From a virus (lineage: Duplodnaviria > Heunggongvirae > Uroviricota > Caudoviricetes), in the IMG/VR virus record IMGVR_UViG_2744054872_000001, positions 1-11,088 of that record: a DNA stretch of 11,088 nucleotides. One strand, written 5' to 3'. The position numbers and the translations under genes are program-made. This document shows, in pieces, positions 2,054-10,253 of this stretch (position 1 is the first letter of the stretch; each line of letters opens with the position of its first letter). The notes below the pieces were generated by a model, which made no database searches, was not told where the DNA came from, and saw only the letters and a list, made by a program, of their open reading frames with translations.

Positions 2054-3313
2054 TTATTTGAATATATCAGTTATAGTTGGGTAATTATACATCTTAAGCT
2101 TATCTCTAAATTTCATAGAAAATATAGGGTCTACCTTACATCTGTGTAAGAGCTTTGCAATCCTTAGCTCCCTCTCATTCATAATATCTTTGTATTCGCT
2201 ATCAATACTTTCCTGAATTTGCTGATTCTCAACAGGAGACGGTTTAGTAATTTTATCCCATTGATAAGTTGGCTTCGTAGTGTAATTTAAACTATCATCA
2301 TTTTGGAGTAATGCCTCAAGACGAGACTTAGCATTTTCATATAGCATTCTATCTTGGGGCAACATACTTGCAACACGCATTTCCATTTCAATTTCCGATA
2401 CTATCATTTCAAGTTGACGTTTTTCCGTTTCAATAGCTAAAAGAAATGGAAATAGGGCTTCTTGCTTAATCATTTGACAATTCAAATTATTGTTTATGCC
2501 ACTAAGTAATTTTGTAAATGAGAACTTCTTTAAAGGCTGCTGATTTATAACACTCTGTCTAACTGGCATTGTGTAGTTCGGTGTTTTTTCAAGTGTTTTC
2601 TTCACTTGCTCTATAGCAACATTAGGAGTGTAGAAAACAGTCTTTGCTGGAATACGTAGCACCATAAACCCCTCCTTTATTGAATATTCATCACGAATAC
2701 GATCTCGCTCTATTTGTTCTGGGGATGAATGCCATGCTGCACCATCAATTTCTATAATTTGGCGTCCATTTACGACAAAATCAAAACGATAACGCTTATA
2801 GGGCACTTGCATTTCAAGCACTAAGTCAGGAGAAACTAACATTCCAGATTTAGGTTTAAGATTAAACTCTGCAACCATTTTACGAAGAAATGCCTCCTCA
2901 GCCGGAGATTCGCAACCTTTGCAAAATATATCAAGCCAGTTTTCTGCGTCAGCGTCAACAGTTTGCCACCATGCTAACAGTCCACGTCGGTGTCCATATA
3001 ATCGTTCATCTGACGGTTTTGTTAATGGCTTTGTTAACGGTTTAACTAAGGGTTCATTTAACGGCTTTAATAACGGCTTAAATAACGGCTTATTTAACGA
3101 ATTTAATAACGATTTATTTAATGGTTTGATTGACGGTCTATTTGACGACTCAATCGGTGGTTTAGATGATGATTTGTTTTTTTTATCAAAACCTACGATA
3201 GTTATATATGCTACATATAGCATCATGCCTGCAACAGGCCATACACATGGATAAATCACGTAACACAACAGTAATAGAACAATAGTCCCAAAAAATGTTA
3301 ACTTCTTCCGCAT
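2054..3313 (-). CDS. Membrane-anchored DUF559 (Vsr-like / restriction-endonuclease-fold) domain protein, 419 aa: two N-terminal hydrophobic helices, KPLx repeat linker, DUF559-like core, coiled-coil C-terminus
   Basis: N-terminus MRKK + two hydrophobic helices followed by DKKNK; linker KPLF-KPLL-KPLN-EPLV-KPLT-KPLT; core RFDFVVNGRQIIEIDGAAWH...RDRIRDEY...GFMVLRIP matches the DUF559 signature FDF...IE.DG..H...D..RD...G..VLR from memory. About 33% GC. Confidence 0.7.
   Translation of the reverse strand: MRKKLTFFGTIVLLLLCYVIYPCVWPVAGMMLYVAYITIVGFDKKNKSSSKPPIESSNRPSIKPLNKSLLNSLNKPLFKPLLKPLNEPLVKPLTKPLTKPSDERLYGHRRGLLAWWQTVDADAENWLDIFCKGCESPAEEAFLRKMVAEFNLKPKSGMLVSPDLVLEMQVPYKRYRFDFVVNGRQIIEIDGAAWHSSPEQIERDRIRDEYSIKEGFMVLRIPAKTVFYTPNVAIEQVKKTLEKTPNYTMPVRQSVINQQPLKKFSFTKLLSGINNNLNCQMIKQEALFPFLLAIETEKRQLEMIVSEIEMEMRVASMLPQDRMLYENAKSRLEALLQNDDSLNYTTKPTYQWDKITKPSPVENQQIQESIDSEYKDIMNERELRIAKLLHRCKVDPIFSMKFRDKLKMYNYPTITDIFK
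3013..3140. repeat. Imperfect 12-bp tandem repeat (about 9-10 units, consensus near TTWAATAACGGC) encoding the KPLx linker
   Basis: ACGG/ACGA/ATGG recurs at 3013, 3037, 3061, 3073, 3085, 3097, 3109, 3121, 3133, i.e. 12-bp period from 3061 onward; in frame with the 419-aa CDS. Confidence 0.7.
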
Positions 3314-4815: not shown

Positions 4816-4982
4816 TGCGTTATATTAAGTCTAAAAAAATCAACTATCGACATTATATGCTCTGCTAATAATTTACACTTGATTTAGTTGAGTTGGTTTA
4901 ATATTGACACTAACTCACTCTCTAATTATATACAATTTCCAATTTTATATGCGCATATATGGAAACCTATACCAACAGCATG

Positions 4983-5030
4983 TTGCTCTAATAAATTTGT
5001 CTTTTTAAGTCACGAATGCTATCTTTTCGC
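4983..5030 (+). repeat. Conserved upstream box, copy 1 (TTGCTCTAATAAATTT-N-TTTT-TAAGT...GAAT...TTTCG)
   Basis: About 27 of 35 core positions identical to copy 2 at 6644-6692; lies about 300 bp upstream of the 73-aa ORF and first antirepressor gene. Confidence 0.5.
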
Positions 5031-5312
5031 ATCATATTGACCTTTTAATCGTTCAGGCTTATAGTTCCGCCGTCGTAGCAAATTCTGCGACCGGGTTTAG
5101 CAGCCTGAATGATTGTGCGGACAGCCGCAGATATCCGATATTGCGGTATTTTTGTGTCCGTAAAACCGCGTTACGCCCAAATTATGGTGGGACGTGATGG
5201 GGAGGCTTCGGCCTGCTGGTTTCACAATCGCCAGTCTGCTAACCCCGTCACGTCCTGCCACCTGTTTAGCAGCGGGTAGCAGGTTGTTAAACCTGATTGT
5301 GAGGCCGTAACT

Positions 5313-5534
5313 ATGGTTAATGCCAATCCTTACGCACGCCAAGAATTCATCTGGCGTTTCTATTCCTGTAAAAAACACCACTATCACTTCGTCATCGCAG
5401 CAACAGAAGACGAAGCACGCTCTCAATTGCCTGATGGCCCCTGCATTTTTACTGCCCGTTTTTCAACTAACTCGCGCAATTCACTTAGTTACTGGAACCT
5501 CCCCTTCTCTGCCGACGTTCAGGGGGATTTATGA
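5313..5534 (+). CDS. Small hypothetical protein (73 aa), translationally coupled to the downstream antirepressor
   Basis: GAGG 9-12 nt upstream of ATG 5313; stop TGA overlaps the ATG of the next gene (ATGA at 5531-5534); more protein-like than overlapping frames. Confidence 0.4.
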   Translation: MVNANPYARQEFIWRFYSCKKHHYHFVIAATEDEARSQLPDGPCIFTARFSTNSRNSLSYWNLPFSADVQGDL

Positions 5535-6565
5535 AAAAACCTCTCGTCACCCGTAATGAAATAGCCGAAGCGATCGCCCTGCATACAACCTGTATGCCGA
5601 CACGGGAGATCCCCGGCGCAATTGCCAACTATTTCATGATAACCAGACGTTTTTATACCCGAACAGATAAGGCTGTGATCAACAAGCTACTGATAGCCGA
5701 GATCAGGGATTATTTGATTGAACAAGGACGTCTACGTTACGCAACAGTGGCAGCAGAAATGAGAAAGGAGGCACACAGAGTGACCGGTAAAAATTTGAAT
5801 ATTGAAAAACCAGCACCTGTTACGTCAGCTACGCCAACACCAGCCGTGAATGTCATCCCCAACATCGGAGACACAATCGACAGCCAAACATTGTTGAAGA
5901 TGGTCAATGAGGCACGGAAATTATGTAGCGAAAAACCAGTTCGCAATAATGATTTCATTGCCAGAGTTAAGGATGAACTTGAAGGAGAAACCTACGAAAT
6001 TTTCGTAGGTCAAAAAAACGGCGCAGAAATAGATATTATAACAATGACCTACAAACAAGCCCTGCGAGTTGCCGCGCGCGAGTCAAAAGCGGTCCGCCGT
6101 TCGCTGATCGACAAACTGGAAGAATTACAGCAGGCAAACTCCCCTACCCCATCGATCCCCCAGACATTACCAGAAGCCCTACGCCTGGCTGCCGAGTTAG
6201 CAGAACAGAAAATGCAGTTGGAACAACAGCTGGTGGCCGCAGCCCCTAAAGTCGATTTTGCCGACCGGGTATCAGTGGCCAATGGAATCCTGATCGGGAA
6301 CTTTGCAAAGGTCGTTGGACTTAAGCAAAACGCCCTTTTCTCATGGTTGCGCCAGAACGGCATTCTCATGGCTTTTGGTGCGCGCAAAAACGTACCGCGC
6401 CAACAGTACATCAACGCCGGGTATTTCACGGTGAAAGAAGTGGTGTTGGATGATGAAAATGGCTACCAGATACGGCTGACGCCCCAATTAACGGGTAAAG
6501 GCCAGCAGTGGTTAACTCGCAAGCTACTTGATGCTGGTTTGTTAAAACCAGTAGCAATAGGTTAA
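5531..6565 (+). CDS. Phage antirepressor, KilA-C (ANT-type) C-terminal domain, 344 aa
   Basis: C-terminal block LPEALRLAAELAEQK...PKVDFADRV...GILIGNFAKVVGL...LFSWLRQNGIL...RKNVPRQQYINAGYF matches the KilA-C signature and is paralogous to the next gene; SD GGGGGA before ATG. Confidence 0.8.
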   Translation: MKKPLVTRNEIAEAIALHTTCMPTREIPGAIANYFMITRRFYTRTDKAVINKLLIAEIRDYLIEQGRLRYATVAAEMRKEAHRVTGKNLNIEKPAPVTSATPTPAVNVIPNIGDTIDSQTLLKMVNEARKLCSEKPVRNNDFIARVKDELEGETYEIFVGQKNGAEIDIITMTYKQALRVAARESKAVRRSLIDKLEELQQANSPTPSIPQTLPEALRLAAELAEQKMQLEQQLVAAAPKVDFADRVSVANGILIGNFAKVVGLKQNALFSWLRQNGILMAFGARKNVPRQQYINAGYFTVKEVVLDDENGYQIRLTPQLTGKGQQWLTRKLLDAGLLKPVAIG

Positions 6566-6576
6566 CAAAAGAAAAA

Positions 6577-6603
6577 ACCTGCCAGCAAACTGACAGGTTT
6601 CTG
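6577..6603 (+). terminator. Weak hairpin (8 of 9 bp stem, CAAA loop) after antirepressor 1; A-run upstream and short T-run downstream
   Basis: ACCUGCCAG-CAAA-CUGACAGGU with one C-A mismatch; only UUU follows on the plus strand. Confidence 0.3.
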
Positions 6604-6643
6604 AGCAGATCGACCAACCCGATCTGGATCGAGTTAGAAAAAT

Positions 6644-6692
6644 TTGCTCTAATAAATTTCGTTTTCTAAGTGCAAAGAATCACCATTTCGAG
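6644..6692 (+). repeat. Conserved upstream box, copy 2, about 40 bp before antirepressor 2; followed by inverted repeat AATCACCA-N8-TGGTGATT (6678-6701)
   Basis: Direct repeat of 4983-5030; its position relative to the 6729 start suggests promoter or operator. Confidence 0.5.
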
Positions 6693-6728
6693 CTGGTGAT
6701 TGAAGGTTGATGCAAATTTGGAGAAAAA

Positions 6729-7529
6729 ATGCAACAAACATTCAATGCGGATATGAATATATCAAACCTTCATCAAAATGTCGATCCTTCAACCACTCTT
6801 CCCGTTATTTGTGGTGTTGAAATTACGACCGACCGCGCTGGCCGTTACAACCTTAATGCTCTACACAGAGCGAGCGGACTCGGTGCCCATAAAGCGCCAG
6901 CTCAATGGCTAAGAACGCTGTCAGCTAAACAGCTCATCGAAGAGCTTGAAAAAGAAACTATGCAGAATTGCATAGTTTCGTTCGAAGGCCGTGGCGGCGG
7001 CACTTTTGCCCATGAATTGCTCGCAGTGGAGTACGCTGGTTGGATTTCTCCCGCGTTTCGGCTGAAGGTAAACCAGACATTTATCGACTATCGAGCTGGA
7101 AGATTACAACCTGCTATTCCGCAGAGTCTCCCTGAAGCTCTCCGTTTGGCTGCCGAACTGGCAGAGCAAAAGCAACGGCTGGAGCAAAAAATGCTTATGG
7201 ATGCACCTAAAGTCGAATTCGCCGAACGCGTTGCTACCGCCAGCGGGGTTCTAATCGGCAACTATGCCAAAGTGCTCGGCCTGGGCCAAAACTATCTCTT
7301 CACCTGGTTGCGTGATAACGGAATTCTGATCGCAACCGGTGAACGCAGGAACGTCCCCAAACAAGAATACATATCCCGTGGATATTTCACCCTTAAAGAA
7401 ACCGTGATCGATACAAGCAATGGAAGCAGGATTTCTTTCACGACTCGTATAACCGGCAAAGGTCAGCAGTGGCTGATGAAGCGATTGCTTGATGCTGGTG
7501 TGCTGGTACCTGTCGCGGCAACGCGCTAA
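6729..7529 (+). CDS. Phage antirepressor with KilA-N N-terminal domain and KilA-C C-terminal domain, 266 aa
   Basis: N-terminal YNLNALHRASGLG...GTFAHELLAVEYAGWISPAFRLKV resembles KilA-N; C-terminal block paralogous to 6130-6565; SD GGAG before ATG. Confidence 0.8.
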   Translation: MQQTFNADMNISNLHQNVDPSTTLPVICGVEITTDRAGRYNLNALHRASGLGAHKAPAQWLRTLSAKQLIEELEKETMQNCIVSFEGRGGGTFAHELLAVEYAGWISPAFRLKVNQTFIDYRAGRLQPAIPQSLPEALRLAAELAEQKQRLEQKMLMDAPKVEFAERVATASGVLIGNYAKVLGLGQNYLFTWLRDNGILIATGERRNVPKQEYISRGYFTLKETVIDTSNGSRISFTTRITGKGQQWLMKRLLDAGVLVPVAATR

Positions 7530-7558
7530 CAGACGTAGTAAGAACCACCAGCATTGTA

Positions 7559-8059
7559 ATGCTGGCTAAAGTCACTTTCCTGAGCTGTATAACGATGAGC
7601 GATTTTACTTTTTCTGGCTATGAATTGGCCTGCTTTGTAACACACTCCGGTCTATCCCGTAGCGCCGGGCATATCCTGTCGCAATGTGCAAATCTCGCGG
7701 CAACAACCAGTGAATACTTCATTCACAAGCCTCACCGCCTGATCGCGGCAGAAACTGGTTATAGCCAATCAACCGTCGTTCGTGCATTCCGTGAAGCTGT
7801 AAACAAAGGAATCCTGTCTGTAGAGATTGTTATCGGCGATCACCGTGAACGTCGCGCTAACCTGTACCGGTTTACACCATCCTTTTTGGCCTTCGCACAA
7901 CAAGCCAAAAATGCGCTGACTGAAAGCAAATTAAAGATCTCTTCAGCGGCAACCAAGGTTAAAGCTGTTATCGCTAAGACATTGGCTTTATTTAATTTTA
8001 TATCCACACCCCATGTCAAAATGATACCCCCTCCCCCTGTCAGGATGACGTGGCAATAA
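7559..8059 (+). CDS. Putative helix-turn-helix DNA-binding protein (166 aa; start may instead be ATG 7595)
   Basis: HTH-like segment AETGYSQSTVVRAFREAVNKGIL; ATG 7559 sits inside hairpin 7548-7565, so the start is uncertain. Confidence 0.4.
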   Translation: MLAKVTFLSCITMSDFTFSGYELACFVTHSGLSRSAGHILSQCANLAATTSEYFIHKPHRLIAAETGYSQSTVVRAFREAVNKGILSVEIVIGDHRERRANLYRFTPSFLAFAQQAKNALTESKLKISSAATKVKAVIAKTLALFNFISTPHVKMIPPPPVRMTWQ

Positions 8060-8403
8060 AGAATAAGAAGTCACAAGTTAAAAAAACAAAAAGATCAGTT
8101 TCCGGCGGTGCCGGAACGTCCAGACTCAAAAAATTGACTTCATGGATCGCTGAGGCAAAAGCAAAGGCTGACAATCTGCGGTTATCCCAAAAACGCGCTC
8201 AAAAACATGAGTTCAAGCAGAAAGTAGAGGCGGCTGCGCGGAAATATGCTTACCTGAAGAACAAGCGTTCGCCTGATATTGGCGGGATATCAAACTTCGA
8301 TAACCTACCGCATTGCATGACGGTAAACGAAGCTCTTAATGCGGTTTTAGCCAAAAATAAAGATAACGATCAATGGGGTATACCGGCGGGATTCAGAGGG
8401 TGA
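8050..8403 (+). CDS. Basic lysine-rich hypothetical protein (117 aa), GTG start overlapping the upstream stop
   Basis: ORF begins with GTG at 8050 and overlaps the previous ORF by 10 nt; K/R-rich; no family recognised. Confidence 0.3.
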   Translation: MAIKNKKSQVKKTKRSVSGGAGTSRLKKLTSWIAEAKAKADNLRLSQKRAQKHEFKQKVEAAARKYAYLKNKRSPDIGGISNFDNLPHCMTVNEALNAVLAKNKDNDQWGIPAGFRG

Positions 8404-8553
8404 TAGATTGCTCTAATCTGGAGTCACCTGGCGTTTTCAGTATGGATTTTCTTTGGCGCGGTCTGGCCATTAGGGATCATGTTTGCTGCAACGTTTCTTC
8501 TGATGTGGGTATTCACCCTTCCAGGTGATTTCTATAGAAAAAAAGCCAGACAT

Positions 8554-8562
8554 TGATACAAT
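8554..8562 (+). promoter_or_regulatory. Candidate hok mRNA promoter: extended -10 TGaTACAAT, predicted start near G8569/8570
   Basis: TG at 8554-8555 plus TACAAT 8557-8562; predicted start coincides with the 5' element GGGUGCUUGAGG (8569-8580), which is complementary to the 3' element at 10289-10301. Confidence 0.4.
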
Positions 8563-8631
8563 CGCTGCGGGTGCTTGAGGCTATCTGCTTCAGGCATTAC
8601 CCGAAAAGCAGATAGAAGAAAGCCCCAGATA

Positions 8632-8690
8632 ACATTACGCGTCCTGCAAGACGCTTAACATTAATCTGAGGCAATATCTATGCTTAGCAT
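8632..8690 (-). ncRNA. sok: Sok-like antisense RNA (approximate ends) complementary to the mok SD and start region
   Basis: Minus-strand TTGACC (8724-8719), 18-bp spacer, weak -10 TAATCT (8700-8695); predicted transcript covers mok SD 8668-8671 and ATG 8680-8682; ends in hairpin GCGUC-UUGCAG-GACGC (8656-8641). Position inferred from hok/sok family architecture. Confidence 0.5.
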
Positions 8691-8886
8691 ACGTAGATTA
8701 GCCTCTTACCGACCAAAAGGTCAAGGAGAAGCAGGCTATGAAGCAGCAAAAAGCGATGTTAATCGCTCTGATCGTCATCTGTTTAACCGTCATTGTGACG
8801 GCACTGGTAACGAGGAAAGACCTCTGCGAGGTACGAATCCGAACCGGCCAGACGGAGGTCACTGTCTTCACAGCCTACGAATCTGA
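8680..8886 (+). CDS. mok: Mok-like overlapping reading frame (68 aa) that overlaps hok in another frame
   Basis: ATG 8680 with GAGG 8 nt upstream; covers hok in a different frame and ends 7 nt before the hok stop, as expected for mok. Confidence 0.6.
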   Translation: MLSIRRLASYRPKGQGEAGYEAAKSDVNRSDRHLFNRHCDGTGNEERPLRGTNPNRPDGGHCLHSLRI

Positions 8887-8893
8887 AAGGTAA
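8738..8893 (+). CDS. hok: Hok/Gef-family type I membrane toxin, 51 aa: MKQQKAMLIALIVICLTVIVTALVTRKDLCEVRIRTGQTEVTVFTAYESER
   Basis: Own translation of 8738-8893; AAGGAG 10 nt upstream; single TM helix plus the conserved RKDLCEV...R.G...V.F.AYE motif; close to HokC/HokD as recalled, exact paralog not assigned. Confidence 0.9.
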   Translation: MKQQKAMLIALIVICLTVIVTALVTRKDLCEVRIRTGQTEVTVFTAYESER

Positions 8894-8915: not shown

Positions 8916-10253
8916 CATAAGCGCTAACTTAAGGGTTGAACCATCTGAAGAATGCGACGCCTCGGTGCCTCGTTAAGACGATGCCTCGCGTTCTTCAATT
9001 GCGTTTTGTAGGCTGTCAGGGATACTGTCCCACGAATGGCCACCTGTAAGCTCCAGATGACCATTTTTGTTATTCTCCACAACGAGTTAGTTCTTCTTTT
9101 CGGATCCGGCACTTCTGGGGGGGAAATCCAGCGATGGCTGGATTATGTCGTCAATTAAAAATGCGGCGAGTAGATTAGCAAATATCCACGCTTTCGCGAG
9201 TTCAGGTTCCTTTGCACGCAAAGCATCCAGGTGCAGCAAACTTTTGAGCCGCTTAAAAGCCAGTTCAATTTGCCATCGCAGACGGTAACAATCAGCCACT
9301 TGCTCTGCTGAATATTCATCTTCCGGTAATGATGTTAGCAATAGCACATGGCCCGCTGCTTCCAGCGTTTCCGCCTGAACTACTCGTCCTTTTCGACGAT
9401 TCTCGCTGAGCAGTCGGGTTTTACTGATTAATGCTTTTTCGGGAGGAAGTGATACGGCAATGAGACGTGCCGGAAAGGGAGCTCCGGCTTTTTTATTACC
9501 TGAATTGCCTATCATTACAGTGGTTTCACCGTTCTTACCGCAATCCAGCCCGCGCAGAAAACCCATCATGTCAAAGCGCATTCCTTCTGCAGTTAACCAG
9601 CGCAATCCTCGCCAGTGAACCCGGACGATATAATCAGCTTCTCCAAAAGCAAGTGAGCGGATACATTCGGGACGCGAACCGAATCCCCGGTCAGCAATGC
9701 GTATCTCGTCTGCCGTTTGCGCAAATCGGTCCAGCCGTTCAGCGTCTCTGCTGTCGGTTAGCTCAAAATCAGTGAACTGACAGGTATGAGGATCATATCC
9801 CATATGTAGTCGCCATTCAGCGCTGCCGCCCCCGGGCGCACTGATTGCTGTTCCATCGACAAGACGCAATCTCTTTCCGCTTGTACAACCCGTAACTGCG
9901 GCGCGTACAGCAAGTGTTTGTGCGGCAAGTATGCCAAACCAGTCGGCGGCATTCCGCAGCCGCTTCAGGAGAGCCACGTCAGATAATGTTGCAACGTCAT
10001 GGAGCTGAGCCCATGCAGTGACTTCACGTAATGACATCCCCCCGGGCCGTAAGCCAGCCCCAGACGTAGCAGAGTTGCAGCATCACGAATTTCGCGGCGG
10101 CGGGTTAGAGCCCCGGCATTACGTGCCGAAGTATCCAGTTCTTCGGGCTTACCAATATGGGCCAGAATTGCTGACCAGTTATCGTGAGAGTAATTCATCG
10201 GCACGTTAAATCATATCAGGCGTAATACCACAACCCTTAAGTTAGCGCTTATG
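8916..10253 (-). mobile_element. IS186 (IS4 family), complete 1338-bp copy with terminal inverted repeats and 10-bp target duplication GGAGAGATCC
   Basis: Left end CATAAGCGCTAACTTAAGGGTTG (8916-8938) and right end CAACCCTTAAGTTAGCGCTTATG (10231-10253) are reverse complements; direct repeats GGAGAGATCC at 8906-8915 and 10254-10263; encoded protein matches IS186 InsL as recalled. Confidence 0.9.
9087..10198 (-). pseudogene. insL: IS186 transposase InsL, reading frame broken by a 1-nt deficit in a G-run (plus-strand C6 at 10038-10043)
   Basis: N-terminal 54 aa MNYSHDNWSAILAHIGKPEELDTSARNAGALTRRREIRDAATLLRLGLAYGPGG (from ATG 10198) are in one frame and MSLREVTAWAQLHD... (9087-10037) in the +1 frame; one extra G would restore a 370-aa ORF. 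Could be a true mutation or a homopolymer sequencing error. Confidence 0.8.

Follow-up and report, generated by a model that had tools for sequence, protein, structure and literature searches.

Two C1 operators upstream of the immI and kilA-repL operons in a P1/P7-type phage-plasmid sequence

An immunity operon and a lytic replicon of P1/P7 type

The window analyzed here, i.e., the whole stretch of 11,088 nt, is 100% identical over its full length (11,088/11,088 nt) to pTetA_020022, a P1-like IncY plasmid of E. coli, and positions 4984–8417 display 95.8% identity to P1 and 97.2% to P7. The P1 GenBank features all map onto this window with conserved sequence (Oc4/Op51, P51a, P51b, a1, b1, c4, a2, b2, icd, ant1, ant2, the Dam sites, P53, OrepL/Op53, kilA, P53as, and repL), the P7 record is concordant with this P1-based mapping, and no evidence against a P1/P7-type assignment was encountered. 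Throughout, our analysis itself provides the orthology of all elements, the matches to RNA families, the protein domains, and the cognate c1 gene on the same replicon; for binding by C1, the activity of the promoters, the action of C4, and the Ant1/Ant2–C1 complex, we follow the P1 literature and annotation.

The upstream operon, on the plus strand, carries two promoters. P51a (P2c4; 4996–5025), mapped from the annotated P1 promoter, has its −35 at 4996–5002, which differs from P1 by 1 nt and overlaps the 3′ end of operator Op51, and a −10 (TATCTT, 5020–5025) identical to that of P1. P51b (P1c4; TTGACC-17-TATAGT, 5037–5065) sits downstream of Op51, was independently recovered by a promoter scan (10/12), and is identical to the P1 feature. 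These are followed by the a1/b1 decoy target sites for C4 RNA (5059–5118, plus strand; a1 TTAGCAG at 5097–5103, b1 GATTGTGC at 5111–5118), which match Rfam c4-a1b1 (RF03163) at 5059–5111 with 55.5 bits (gathering cutoff 46.7), and by the 77-nt c4 antisense RNA itself (5186–5262, plus strand), mapped from the P1 misc_RNA and matching Rfam C4 (RF01695) at 5180–5265 with 69.8 bits (gathering cutoff 45). This RNA is of the P7 specificity type, being the same as that of P7 except for A5192, and its loops CUGCUAA and CACAAUC show complementarity to TTAGCAG and GATTGTG in each target pair (a1/b1 and a2/b2). The second pair was placed in the icd leader by loop complementarity and mapping (a2 5266–5272, b2 5295–5302, plus strand), where C4 presumably blocks icd translation and hence ant translation, as given in the P1 annotation.

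Downstream on the same strand, icd (5313–5534) encodes a 73-aa cell-division inhibitor orthologous to P1 Icd (NCBIfam phage_ICD_like, 52.6 bits, cutoff 25) and overlaps by 4 nt the ATG (5531) of ant1. The latter (5531–6565, plus strand; 344 aa) is the orthologue of P1/P7 ant1/ant2 and includes the nested in-frame ant2, with a GTG start at 5780 preceded by AAGGAGG at 5764–5770. Its product carries a C-terminal Pfam ANT/KilAC domain (E = 1.2e-30), and its first 230 aa matched no Pfam family and revealed no KilA-N remnant even at E ≤ 10. Ant1 is thus the distal gene of the operon c4-icd-ant1/2, the main control of which is translational, via the C4 antisense RNA. Between ant1 and the next operon, a terminator scan identified a 13-bp hairpin followed by a T run (6573–6602, minus strand), a probable terminator of the P53as antisense RNA: the fold of 6748→6565 displays z = −5.0, with a terminal hairpin and U run. 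The same hairpin may also terminate immI transcription on the plus strand.

The second operon is transcribed from P53 (PkilA, plus strand; −35 TGGATC at 6625–6630, −10 TCTAAT at 6648–6653), with the annotated P1 elements kept base for base, the −10 inside operator Op53, and three GATC Dam sites near the −35 (6608, 6621, and 6627). Its first gene, kilA (6729–7529, plus strand), is the P1 kilA orthologue and encodes a 266-aa protein with Pfam ANT/KilAC (E = 2e-32) and KilA-N (E = 4e-21) domains. On the minus strand, an independent scan recovered P53as (PaskilA; TCGACA-17-TATATT, 6756–6784, 10/12), also an annotated P1 feature, whose transcription start at 6748 directs an antisense RNA back over Op53/P53. 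The lytic replication initiator gene repL, which contains oriL, was located by P1 alignment at 7559–8403 (plus strand) and is split into two ORFs (7559–8059 and 8050–8403) by a 1-nt deletion, C5 to C4, in the run at about 8004–8008; the C5 run is kept in all 78 other loci containing this repL segment. A definition as KilA plus an intact repL with oriL does not describe this locus, in which KilA is intact and repL is frameshifted. The replicon is the same locus as that of P1, decayed and probably non-functional here: because of the repL frameshift, the operon under Op53 has ceased to work as a lytic replicon.

The repeated boxes correspond to C1 operators

A preliminary description of this region, made from the sequence alone, had noted a similar box at 4983 and 6644, upstream of two genes sharing a KilA-C domain. 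Both observations stand. The box is an exact 16-nt direct repeat, TTGCTCTAATAAATTT, at 4983–4998 and 6644–6659, and the sole repeated 16-mer in the window (mean of 0.015 in 200 shuffles), while Pfam places ANT/KilAC at the C-terminus of both proteins and KilA-N in the second only. C1 of P1 recognizes a 17-bp, asymmetric operator with the consensus ATTGCTCTAATAAATTT, for which 22 operators have been reported in P1 (PMC8546580). Two matches to this 17-mer with 1 mismatch each were found in the window against 0.06 expected by chance: Op51, or Oc4 (GTTGCTCTAATAAATTT, 4982–4998, plus strand, 16/17), which controls c4-icd-ant1/2, and Op53, or OrepL (TTTGCTCTAATAAATTT, 6643–6659, plus strand, 16/17), which controls kilA-repL. 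Position 1 deviates in both, with G and T, respectively, in place of the consensus A, and the P1 and P7 orthologues likewise deviate at positions 1–2. In the alignment, Op51 coincides position by position with the protein_bind feature of P1 named "monovalent C1-controlled operator Oc4; former Op51", and its counterpart in the P7 annotation is Op(c4); Op53 is identical in sequence to the operator of P1 and of P7, where it is named Op(rep).

Op51/Oc4 and Op53/OrepL are among the experimentally defined C1 operators of P1/P7 (PMC9948254, PMC8546580), and C1 bound at Op53 blocks P53 and hence kilA-repL (PMC9948254). For C1 binding and repression at P1 sites, PMC9948254 cites Eliason & Sternberg 1987 and Velleman et al. 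1987. The suggestion that the box is a functional operator serving one repressor for both genes is borne out by the orthology of both copies to these annotated sites, and Op51 and Op53 are predicted to be the operators by which the single repressor C1 controls the two genes. A search of the host genome for that repressor had been proposed; however, it is the element's own C1 rather than a host-encoded protein, since c1 is carried by the source plasmid itself (39650–40501 of the 100%-identical plasmid, outside the window), and its product matches the NCBIfam phage_rep_C1 equivalog (611.6 bits, cutoff 500) and is 99.3% identical to P1 C1. Overall, we consider it highly probable (about 95%) that this region represents the immI immunity operon and lytic replicon of a P1/P7-type phage-plasmid, with both boxes being monovalent C1 operators.

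The original box was proposed to span about 45 bp, of which only ~17 bp are specifically shared. Aligned identity is 16/17 across the operator, 8/12 over the next 12 nt, which form part of a T-rich flank common to many C1 operators, and 8/19 over the last 19 nt, i.e., at chance level, with the GAAT match between the boxes requiring compensating 2-nt shifts. Downstream identity of the c4/rep operator pair (16/31) is unexceptional: C1 operator pairs average 10.4 (sd 3.0), and three others also reach 16. Likewise, both boxes do lie upstream of the genes and on the same strand, yet box 1 does not immediately precede its gene, as it is 548 bp upstream of ant1, an interval occupied by two promoters, icd, and the C4 RNA with its targets. 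The two sites do not belong to a shared promoter either, because Op51 overlaps the −35 of the sigma-70 promoter P51a and Op53 contains the −10 of P53, with the hexamers conserved. Finally, only one of the two genes can be described as an established antirepressor. Ant1/Ant2 is an antirepressor repressed by c4 RNA, with a documented complex with C1 (PMC8546580), whereas KilA is a host-killing protein, the expression of which is lethal to the host and which is not needed for replication (PMC9948254); an antirepressor role for KilA is a hypothesis given as a personal communication (PMC8201110).

Origin of the repeat

The two boxes had initially been interpreted as upstream DNA of an old gene duplication, conserved by selection, so that the promoter would have been copied along with the ANT-domain gene. 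The C-terminal 140 aa of Ant1 and KilA are truly paralogous and align without gaps at 64% amino acid and 61% nucleotide identity (37% at third codon positions), and the position of both boxes upstream of the genes, on the same strand, fits such a scenario. However, the box falls outside the duplicated segment and is one of about 20 C1 operators dispersed over the genome, most of which precede unrelated genes (such as ref, mat, ssb, dam, ban, and lpa); the first 100 kb of P7 carry 17 annotated sites, and the source plasmid has 10 consensus-like ones. The stretches linking each box to the shared domain are not homologous, c4 and icd separate box 1 from ant1 with no counterpart before kilA, and the two operators overlap different promoter hexamers. 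In addition, c4-icd and repL of phage D6 occur without a P1-type operator, none being present within 4 mismatches over the 12 kb examined, so that operator and genes are separable modules. These points effectively refute a duplication remnant, which we regard as very improbable.

Even less credible is a coincidental match. The location of both copies in AT-rich intergenic sequence and the chance-level match of the final 19 nt of the claimed box would favor it, but the shuffles, the excess of consensus matches, and the annotation of both sites as operators in P1 and P7 together refute this explanation.

Close relatives were too similar for a comparison to add much. KilA is 99–100% identical in all 80 IMG/VR loci found with it, leaving phylogenetic footprinting with little power, and among 36 distinct close relatives, 1/17 columns varied in the operator vs. 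27/203 in its surroundings. The operator is thus not much better conserved than its surroundings, and comparison at such short distance adds little.

Predicted regulation in the source plasmid

The C1 operators suggest the following scheme. C1 on Op51, overlapping the P51a −35, would limit c4-icd-ant1/2 transcription, and P51b, downstream of this operator, would keep supplying the transcript from which the 77-nt C4 RNA is processed. C4 would in turn pair with a2/b2 in the icd leader and block translation of icd and of the translationally coupled ant1/ant2, so that the antirepressor would be held off at two levels. Meanwhile, C1 on Op53 would cover the P53 −10 and keep kilA-repL off, preventing both host killing and lytic replication, and the convergent antisense RNA from P53as would add another control layer.

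The source plasmid is degraded: many morphogenesis genes are missing, with few recognizable in the CDS table. It nevertheless retains C1, the C1 operators, and the toxic icd and kilA, alongside the frameshifted repL. This combination of retention and decay fits a plasmid unable to afford repressor loss, and the persistence of the operators is probably explained by the toxicity of Icd and KilA when not repressed.

The arrangement of boxes and genes is already known, consisting of ordinary P1 C1 operators before the classic antirepressor and kilA-repL operons. How the tripartite P1/P7 immunity system works has been established since the late 1980s, and neither boxes nor operons add biological novelty. 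Two copies alone sufficed, however, to recover a genuine dispersed repressor operator from sequence, and the practical use of this analysis lies in the annotation of P1-like IncY resistance plasmids.

A possible extension of the C1 operator

Most C1 operators, including both boxes here, are followed at +19 to +29 by an oriented T-tract and then AA(G)T. The functional unit might therefore exceed 17 bp, with the 3′ T-rich stretch (TTTT.TAAGT) forming part of an extended operator of ~29 bp. In the 17 annotated operators of P7, T accounts for 79/119 bases (66%) at +19 to +25 vs. 26% further downstream (Fisher 7e-16), and 10/17 have at least 5 T in this 7-nt stretch, compared to a frequency of 7% in AT-rich control windows (p = 3e-8). 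The tract is followed by AA at +26/+27, and the signal stays (70% T) without c4, rep, and paired operators. Conversely, the tract is absent from several bona fide operators (rap, shtB, and banB), information per position is low (0.4–0.8 bit), and the T-tract could stem from promoter or leader composition rather than from repressor contact. D6, with no P1-type operator in the 12 kb covered, contributes no site to the extended motif. We thus view an extended operator as a tentative idea that is probably incorrect. If functional, the T-tract could serve, e.g., as a contact for C1 or the Lxc co-repressor, or as a bend. Separately, conserved operator cores may serve as module-exchange junctions. 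That both propositions hold, a C1 recognition unit longer than 17 bp and operator cores as exchange junctions, seems to us unlikely.

Comparison with known systems

Relative to the immI region of P1 and P7, the order, spacing, and sequence of each annotated element are kept, the C4 RNA and a complementary set of four target sites are all present, and ant2 is likewise nested in frame within ant1. The assignment to prophage immunity in the preliminary description was accurate, because the region is P1 immI, while nothing points to the satellite-helper interplay also envisaged there. In contrast to P1, C4 has recognition loops of the P7 type, and small indels make Ant1, at 344 aa, shorter than its counterparts in P1 (347 aa) and P7 (348 aa). 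To the left of Op51, the window contains a lipoprotein gene, DUF5384, and a DUF559 gene where P1 has simABC, and this DNA differs from both P1 and P7, with the break falling precisely at the edge of the operator. Of the three operators in the window, two coincide exactly with homology breakpoints between P1-family genomes.

Similarly, the operator, promoter hexamers, Dam sites, antisense promoter, and kilA of the P1 lytic replicon are kept here, unlike repL, which is frameshifted, and the downstream Op55. An Op55-like site (ATTGCTCTAATCTGGAG, 8407–8423, plus strand, 11/17) has only its 5′ 11 nt in common with P1/P7 Op55 and marks a module junction, and P1 rlfA/B is replaced by a hokD/sok module.

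Beyond the P1 family, immI here is not a member of the P22 immI (mnt-arc-ant, with sar antisense RNA) or Gifsy-1 isrK-anrP systems, which differ in repressors (Mnt/Arc vs. C1), RNA mechanism, and antirepressor family. An isrK match overlaps the a1/b1 region at a sub-threshold score (43.7 bits, gathering cutoff 50). These systems nonetheless follow the same logic, in that the antirepressor of a secondary immunity region is silenced by a dedicated regulator including a small RNA, as here.

The repeat is a C1 operator shared by ant1/ant2 and kilA

Over its whole length, the window was 100% identical to the E. coli plasmid pTetA_020022 (NZ_CP032890.1, 91 kb, IncY), and positions 4984–8417 were 95.8%, 97.2%, and 98.4% identical to phages P1, P7, and RCS47, respectively. 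Only one 16-mer, TTGCTCTAATAAATTT, was repeated on the same strand across the 11,088 nt (4983–4998 and 6644–6659, both exact; shuffle mean 0.015, 200 shuffles). Each copy matches 16 of the 17 positions of ATTGCTCTAATAAATTT, the published consensus for the operator of C1, the P1 master repressor, with 22 such sites reported for P1 (PMC8546580). In the P1 record (AF234172), C1 operator annotations coincide exactly with both boxes: the first is the "monovalent C1-controlled operator Oc4" (formerly Op51), controlling c4, and the second is the "monovalent C1-controlled operator OrepL" (formerly Op53), controlling kilA and repL. Both features are likewise annotated in P7. The preliminary description had suggested a repressor site common to both genes; this reading is correct, and is textbook P1 biology, already known. 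Its box of about 45 bp, however, shrinks to a 17-bp core: the copies agree at 16/17 positions in the first 17 nt, at 8/12 directly after, and at 8/19 in the last 19 nt, about chance for AT-rich DNA. The repressor, expected in the host genome, is instead encoded by the element itself, with c1 at 39650–40501 of the source plasmid. Its product scored 611.6 bits against the NCBIfam C1 equivalog (cut-off 500) and is 99.3% identical to P1 C1, and the plasmid carries ten sites with ≤3 mismatches from the C1 consensus.

Both downstream proteins, encoded at 5531–6565 (344 aa) and 6729–7529 (266 aa), contain a Pfam ANT ("KilAC") domain (E = 1.2e-30 and 1.9e-32), while KilA-N (E = 3.6e-21) is found only in the latter, and the first 230 residues of the former matched no Pfam family even at E ≤ 10. 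This agrees with the architecture originally proposed. Their C-terminal parts share 53% identity over 200 residues (BLASTP), and an ungapped alignment of the last 140 residues gives 64% identity for amino acids and 61% for nucleotides. Since third codon positions in this segment are only 37% identical, the duplication is old, as had been supposed. The claim that both genes encode antirepressors stands for the first, as a complex of Ant1 and Ant2 antagonizes C1 (PMC8546580; P1 annotation), but the second is KilA, for which such a role is only conjectured (PMC8201110).

Anatomy of the immI operon and lytic replicon

P1 features were placed on the window by global alignment. In the immunity operon immI, Op51 (4982–4998) overlaps the −35 hexamer of P51a (−35, 4996–5002; −10, 5020–5025) and is followed by P51b (5037–5065), a1/b1 (5097–5103 and 5111–5118; Rfam target motif, 55.5 bits, gathering 46.7), c4 RNA (5186–5262; Rfam C4, 69.8 bits, gathering 45), a2/b2 (5266–5272 and 5295–5302), icd (5313–5534, recognized as Icd by NCBIfam), ant1 (5531–6565), and ant2, which starts from a GTG behind AAGGAGG (5780–6565). 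The lytic replicon comprises the P53 −35 among three Dam sites (6625–6630), Op53 (6643–6659) with the P53 −10 inside it (6648–6653), kilA (6729–7529), P53as on the minus strand (6784–6756, TSS 6748), and repL (7559–8403). P51b and P53as were also recovered independently by a generic promoter scan.

In its C4 recognition specificity, the window belongs to the P7 type (a, TTAGCAG; b, GATTGTG; 5097–5302). Across 80 IMG/VR loci found with KilA, two a-types are combined with four b-types, and C4 loops and both target pairs always change in match, which makes these variants a naturally occurring set of compensatory immI specificities. At 5192, in the C4 stem, a single A stands where P1, P7, and common variants have G; this substitution appears to convert a G·U pair into A–U.

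Functional steps are taken from P1 literature and annotation, and anatomy and orthology from this analysis. C1 at Op53 blocks P53 and hence kilA-repL; KilA is lethal on expression and dispensable for replication, and RepL initiates lytic replication at oriL (PMC9948254). Through Op51, C1 likewise controls c4-icd-ant, according to the P1 and P7 annotations. The c4 RNA acts in trans to repress Ant1/Ant2 synthesis (PMC8546580; P1 annotation), and Icd inhibits cell division (PMC8198154). The position of P51b downstream of Op51 suggests that C4 supply would persist during C1 repression. The predicted P53as transcript runs leftwards on the minus strand from 6748 (6565–6748, ~180 nt) across Op53 and P53, has a markedly more stable fold than shuffled sequences (z = −5.0), and carries a strong 13-bp hairpin and U-run at its 3′ end (6602–6573). 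Such a structure is in keeping with the antisense control published for the lytic replicon (Heinrich et al. 1995, as cited in PMC9948254).

Separate recruitment of operators and their T-rich flank

The preliminary description had argued from an old duplication with better-conserved upstream DNA to a functional promoter, and the box might accordingly have been copied along with the duplicated gene. This is ruled out by several observations. The 17-mer also precedes unrelated genes (ref, mat, pro, ssb, dam, ban, lpa, and others), and 17 operator copies are annotated within the first 100 kb of the P7 record. Spacing is unequal, with 548 bp, including c4 and icd, between box 1 and ant1, and 70 bp between box 2 and kilA. 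Promoter overlap also differs (Op51 at the P51a −35, Op53 at the P53 −10), and in phage D6 no P1-type operator was found in the 12 kb examined, though c4-icd and repL are kept. Taken together, these observations show that each promoter recruited the operator, a regulon-wide site, on its own.

The motif TTTT.TAAGT, initially considered a mark of both boxes, is not specific to the pair. Most P7 operators have, 3′ of the 17-bp site, an oriented T-tract that leads into AA(G)T (4999–5010 and 6660–6671 in the window); rap, shtB, and banB lack it. Counting from the operator start, positions +19 to +25 of the 17 P7 operators are 66% T (79/119) versus 26% further downstream (Fisher, 7e-16), with at least five T in 10/17 operators versus 7% of AT-rich control windows (p = 3e-8), and AA follows at +26/+27. 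For the c4/rep pair, 16/31 downstream nucleotides match, a value in the upper part of the range seen across operator pairs (mean 10.4, sd 3.0; 16 is reached by three other pairs). This flank is the sole element of possible, and modest, novelty. KilA is 99–100% identical across the 80 IMG/VR loci; among 36 distinct ant1-kilA spacer sequences, variable columns amount to 1/17 in Op53 versus 27/203 in the whole stretch, consistent with constraint but non-discriminating at such short evolutionary distance.

Mosaic junctions and neighboring modules

In repL, one C is lost from a C5 run (8004–8008) that is intact in P1 and in 78/78 IMG/VR loci containing this segment, and the resulting frameshift splits the gene into ORFs 7559–8059 and 8050–8403. 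Unless a shared sequencing error in the homopolymer is responsible, the element's lytic replicon has thus probably lost its function. Only the 5′ 11 nt (ATTGCTCTAAT) of a third operator, Op55 (8407–8423), are kept, and P1/P7 homology stops exactly at their end, where a hokD/sok module (8418–8893; sok, Rfam 114 bits, 8569–8743; Hok ORF, 8738–8893) common to hundreds of P1-like plasmids takes the place of rlfA/B. Compared with p2RM9154-C1, the window is missing 143 bp in this region. To the left, homology among the window, P1, and P7 breaks off precisely where Op51 begins (4940–4983), with unrelated flanks in all three (sim genes in P1, two different lipoprotein-gene contexts in the others), and the 8–10 nt just 5′ of Op51 are hypervariable among close relatives. 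Mosaic junctions thus occur at two of three operators here (Op51 and Op55). To the right of hok/sok, an IS4-family (IS421-like) transposase frame (9087–10204, minus strand) is apparently split or truncated, with ORFs of 316 and 79 aa.

A 419-aa protein encoded between the tail-tube genes and DUF5384 (2054–3313, minus strand) has short KPL-type repeats in a row at its N-terminus, together with a DUF559/MTES_1575 restriction-endonuclease-like domain; the P7 annotation has no counterpart at this position. Outside the window, the source plasmid carries a second complete immI-like operon adjoining c1 (40534–42223), at the place of lpa-pacAB in P1. Its C1-type operator (CTTGCTCTAATAAATTG) is accompanied by an isrK-like element (60.2 bits), a C4 match of 75.4 bits, an icd-like gene, and an Ant-like protein of 371 aa that shares the C-terminal domain of Ant1 and KilA. 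The element therefore has three genes with a KilAC domain, and a C1 operator precedes every one of them.
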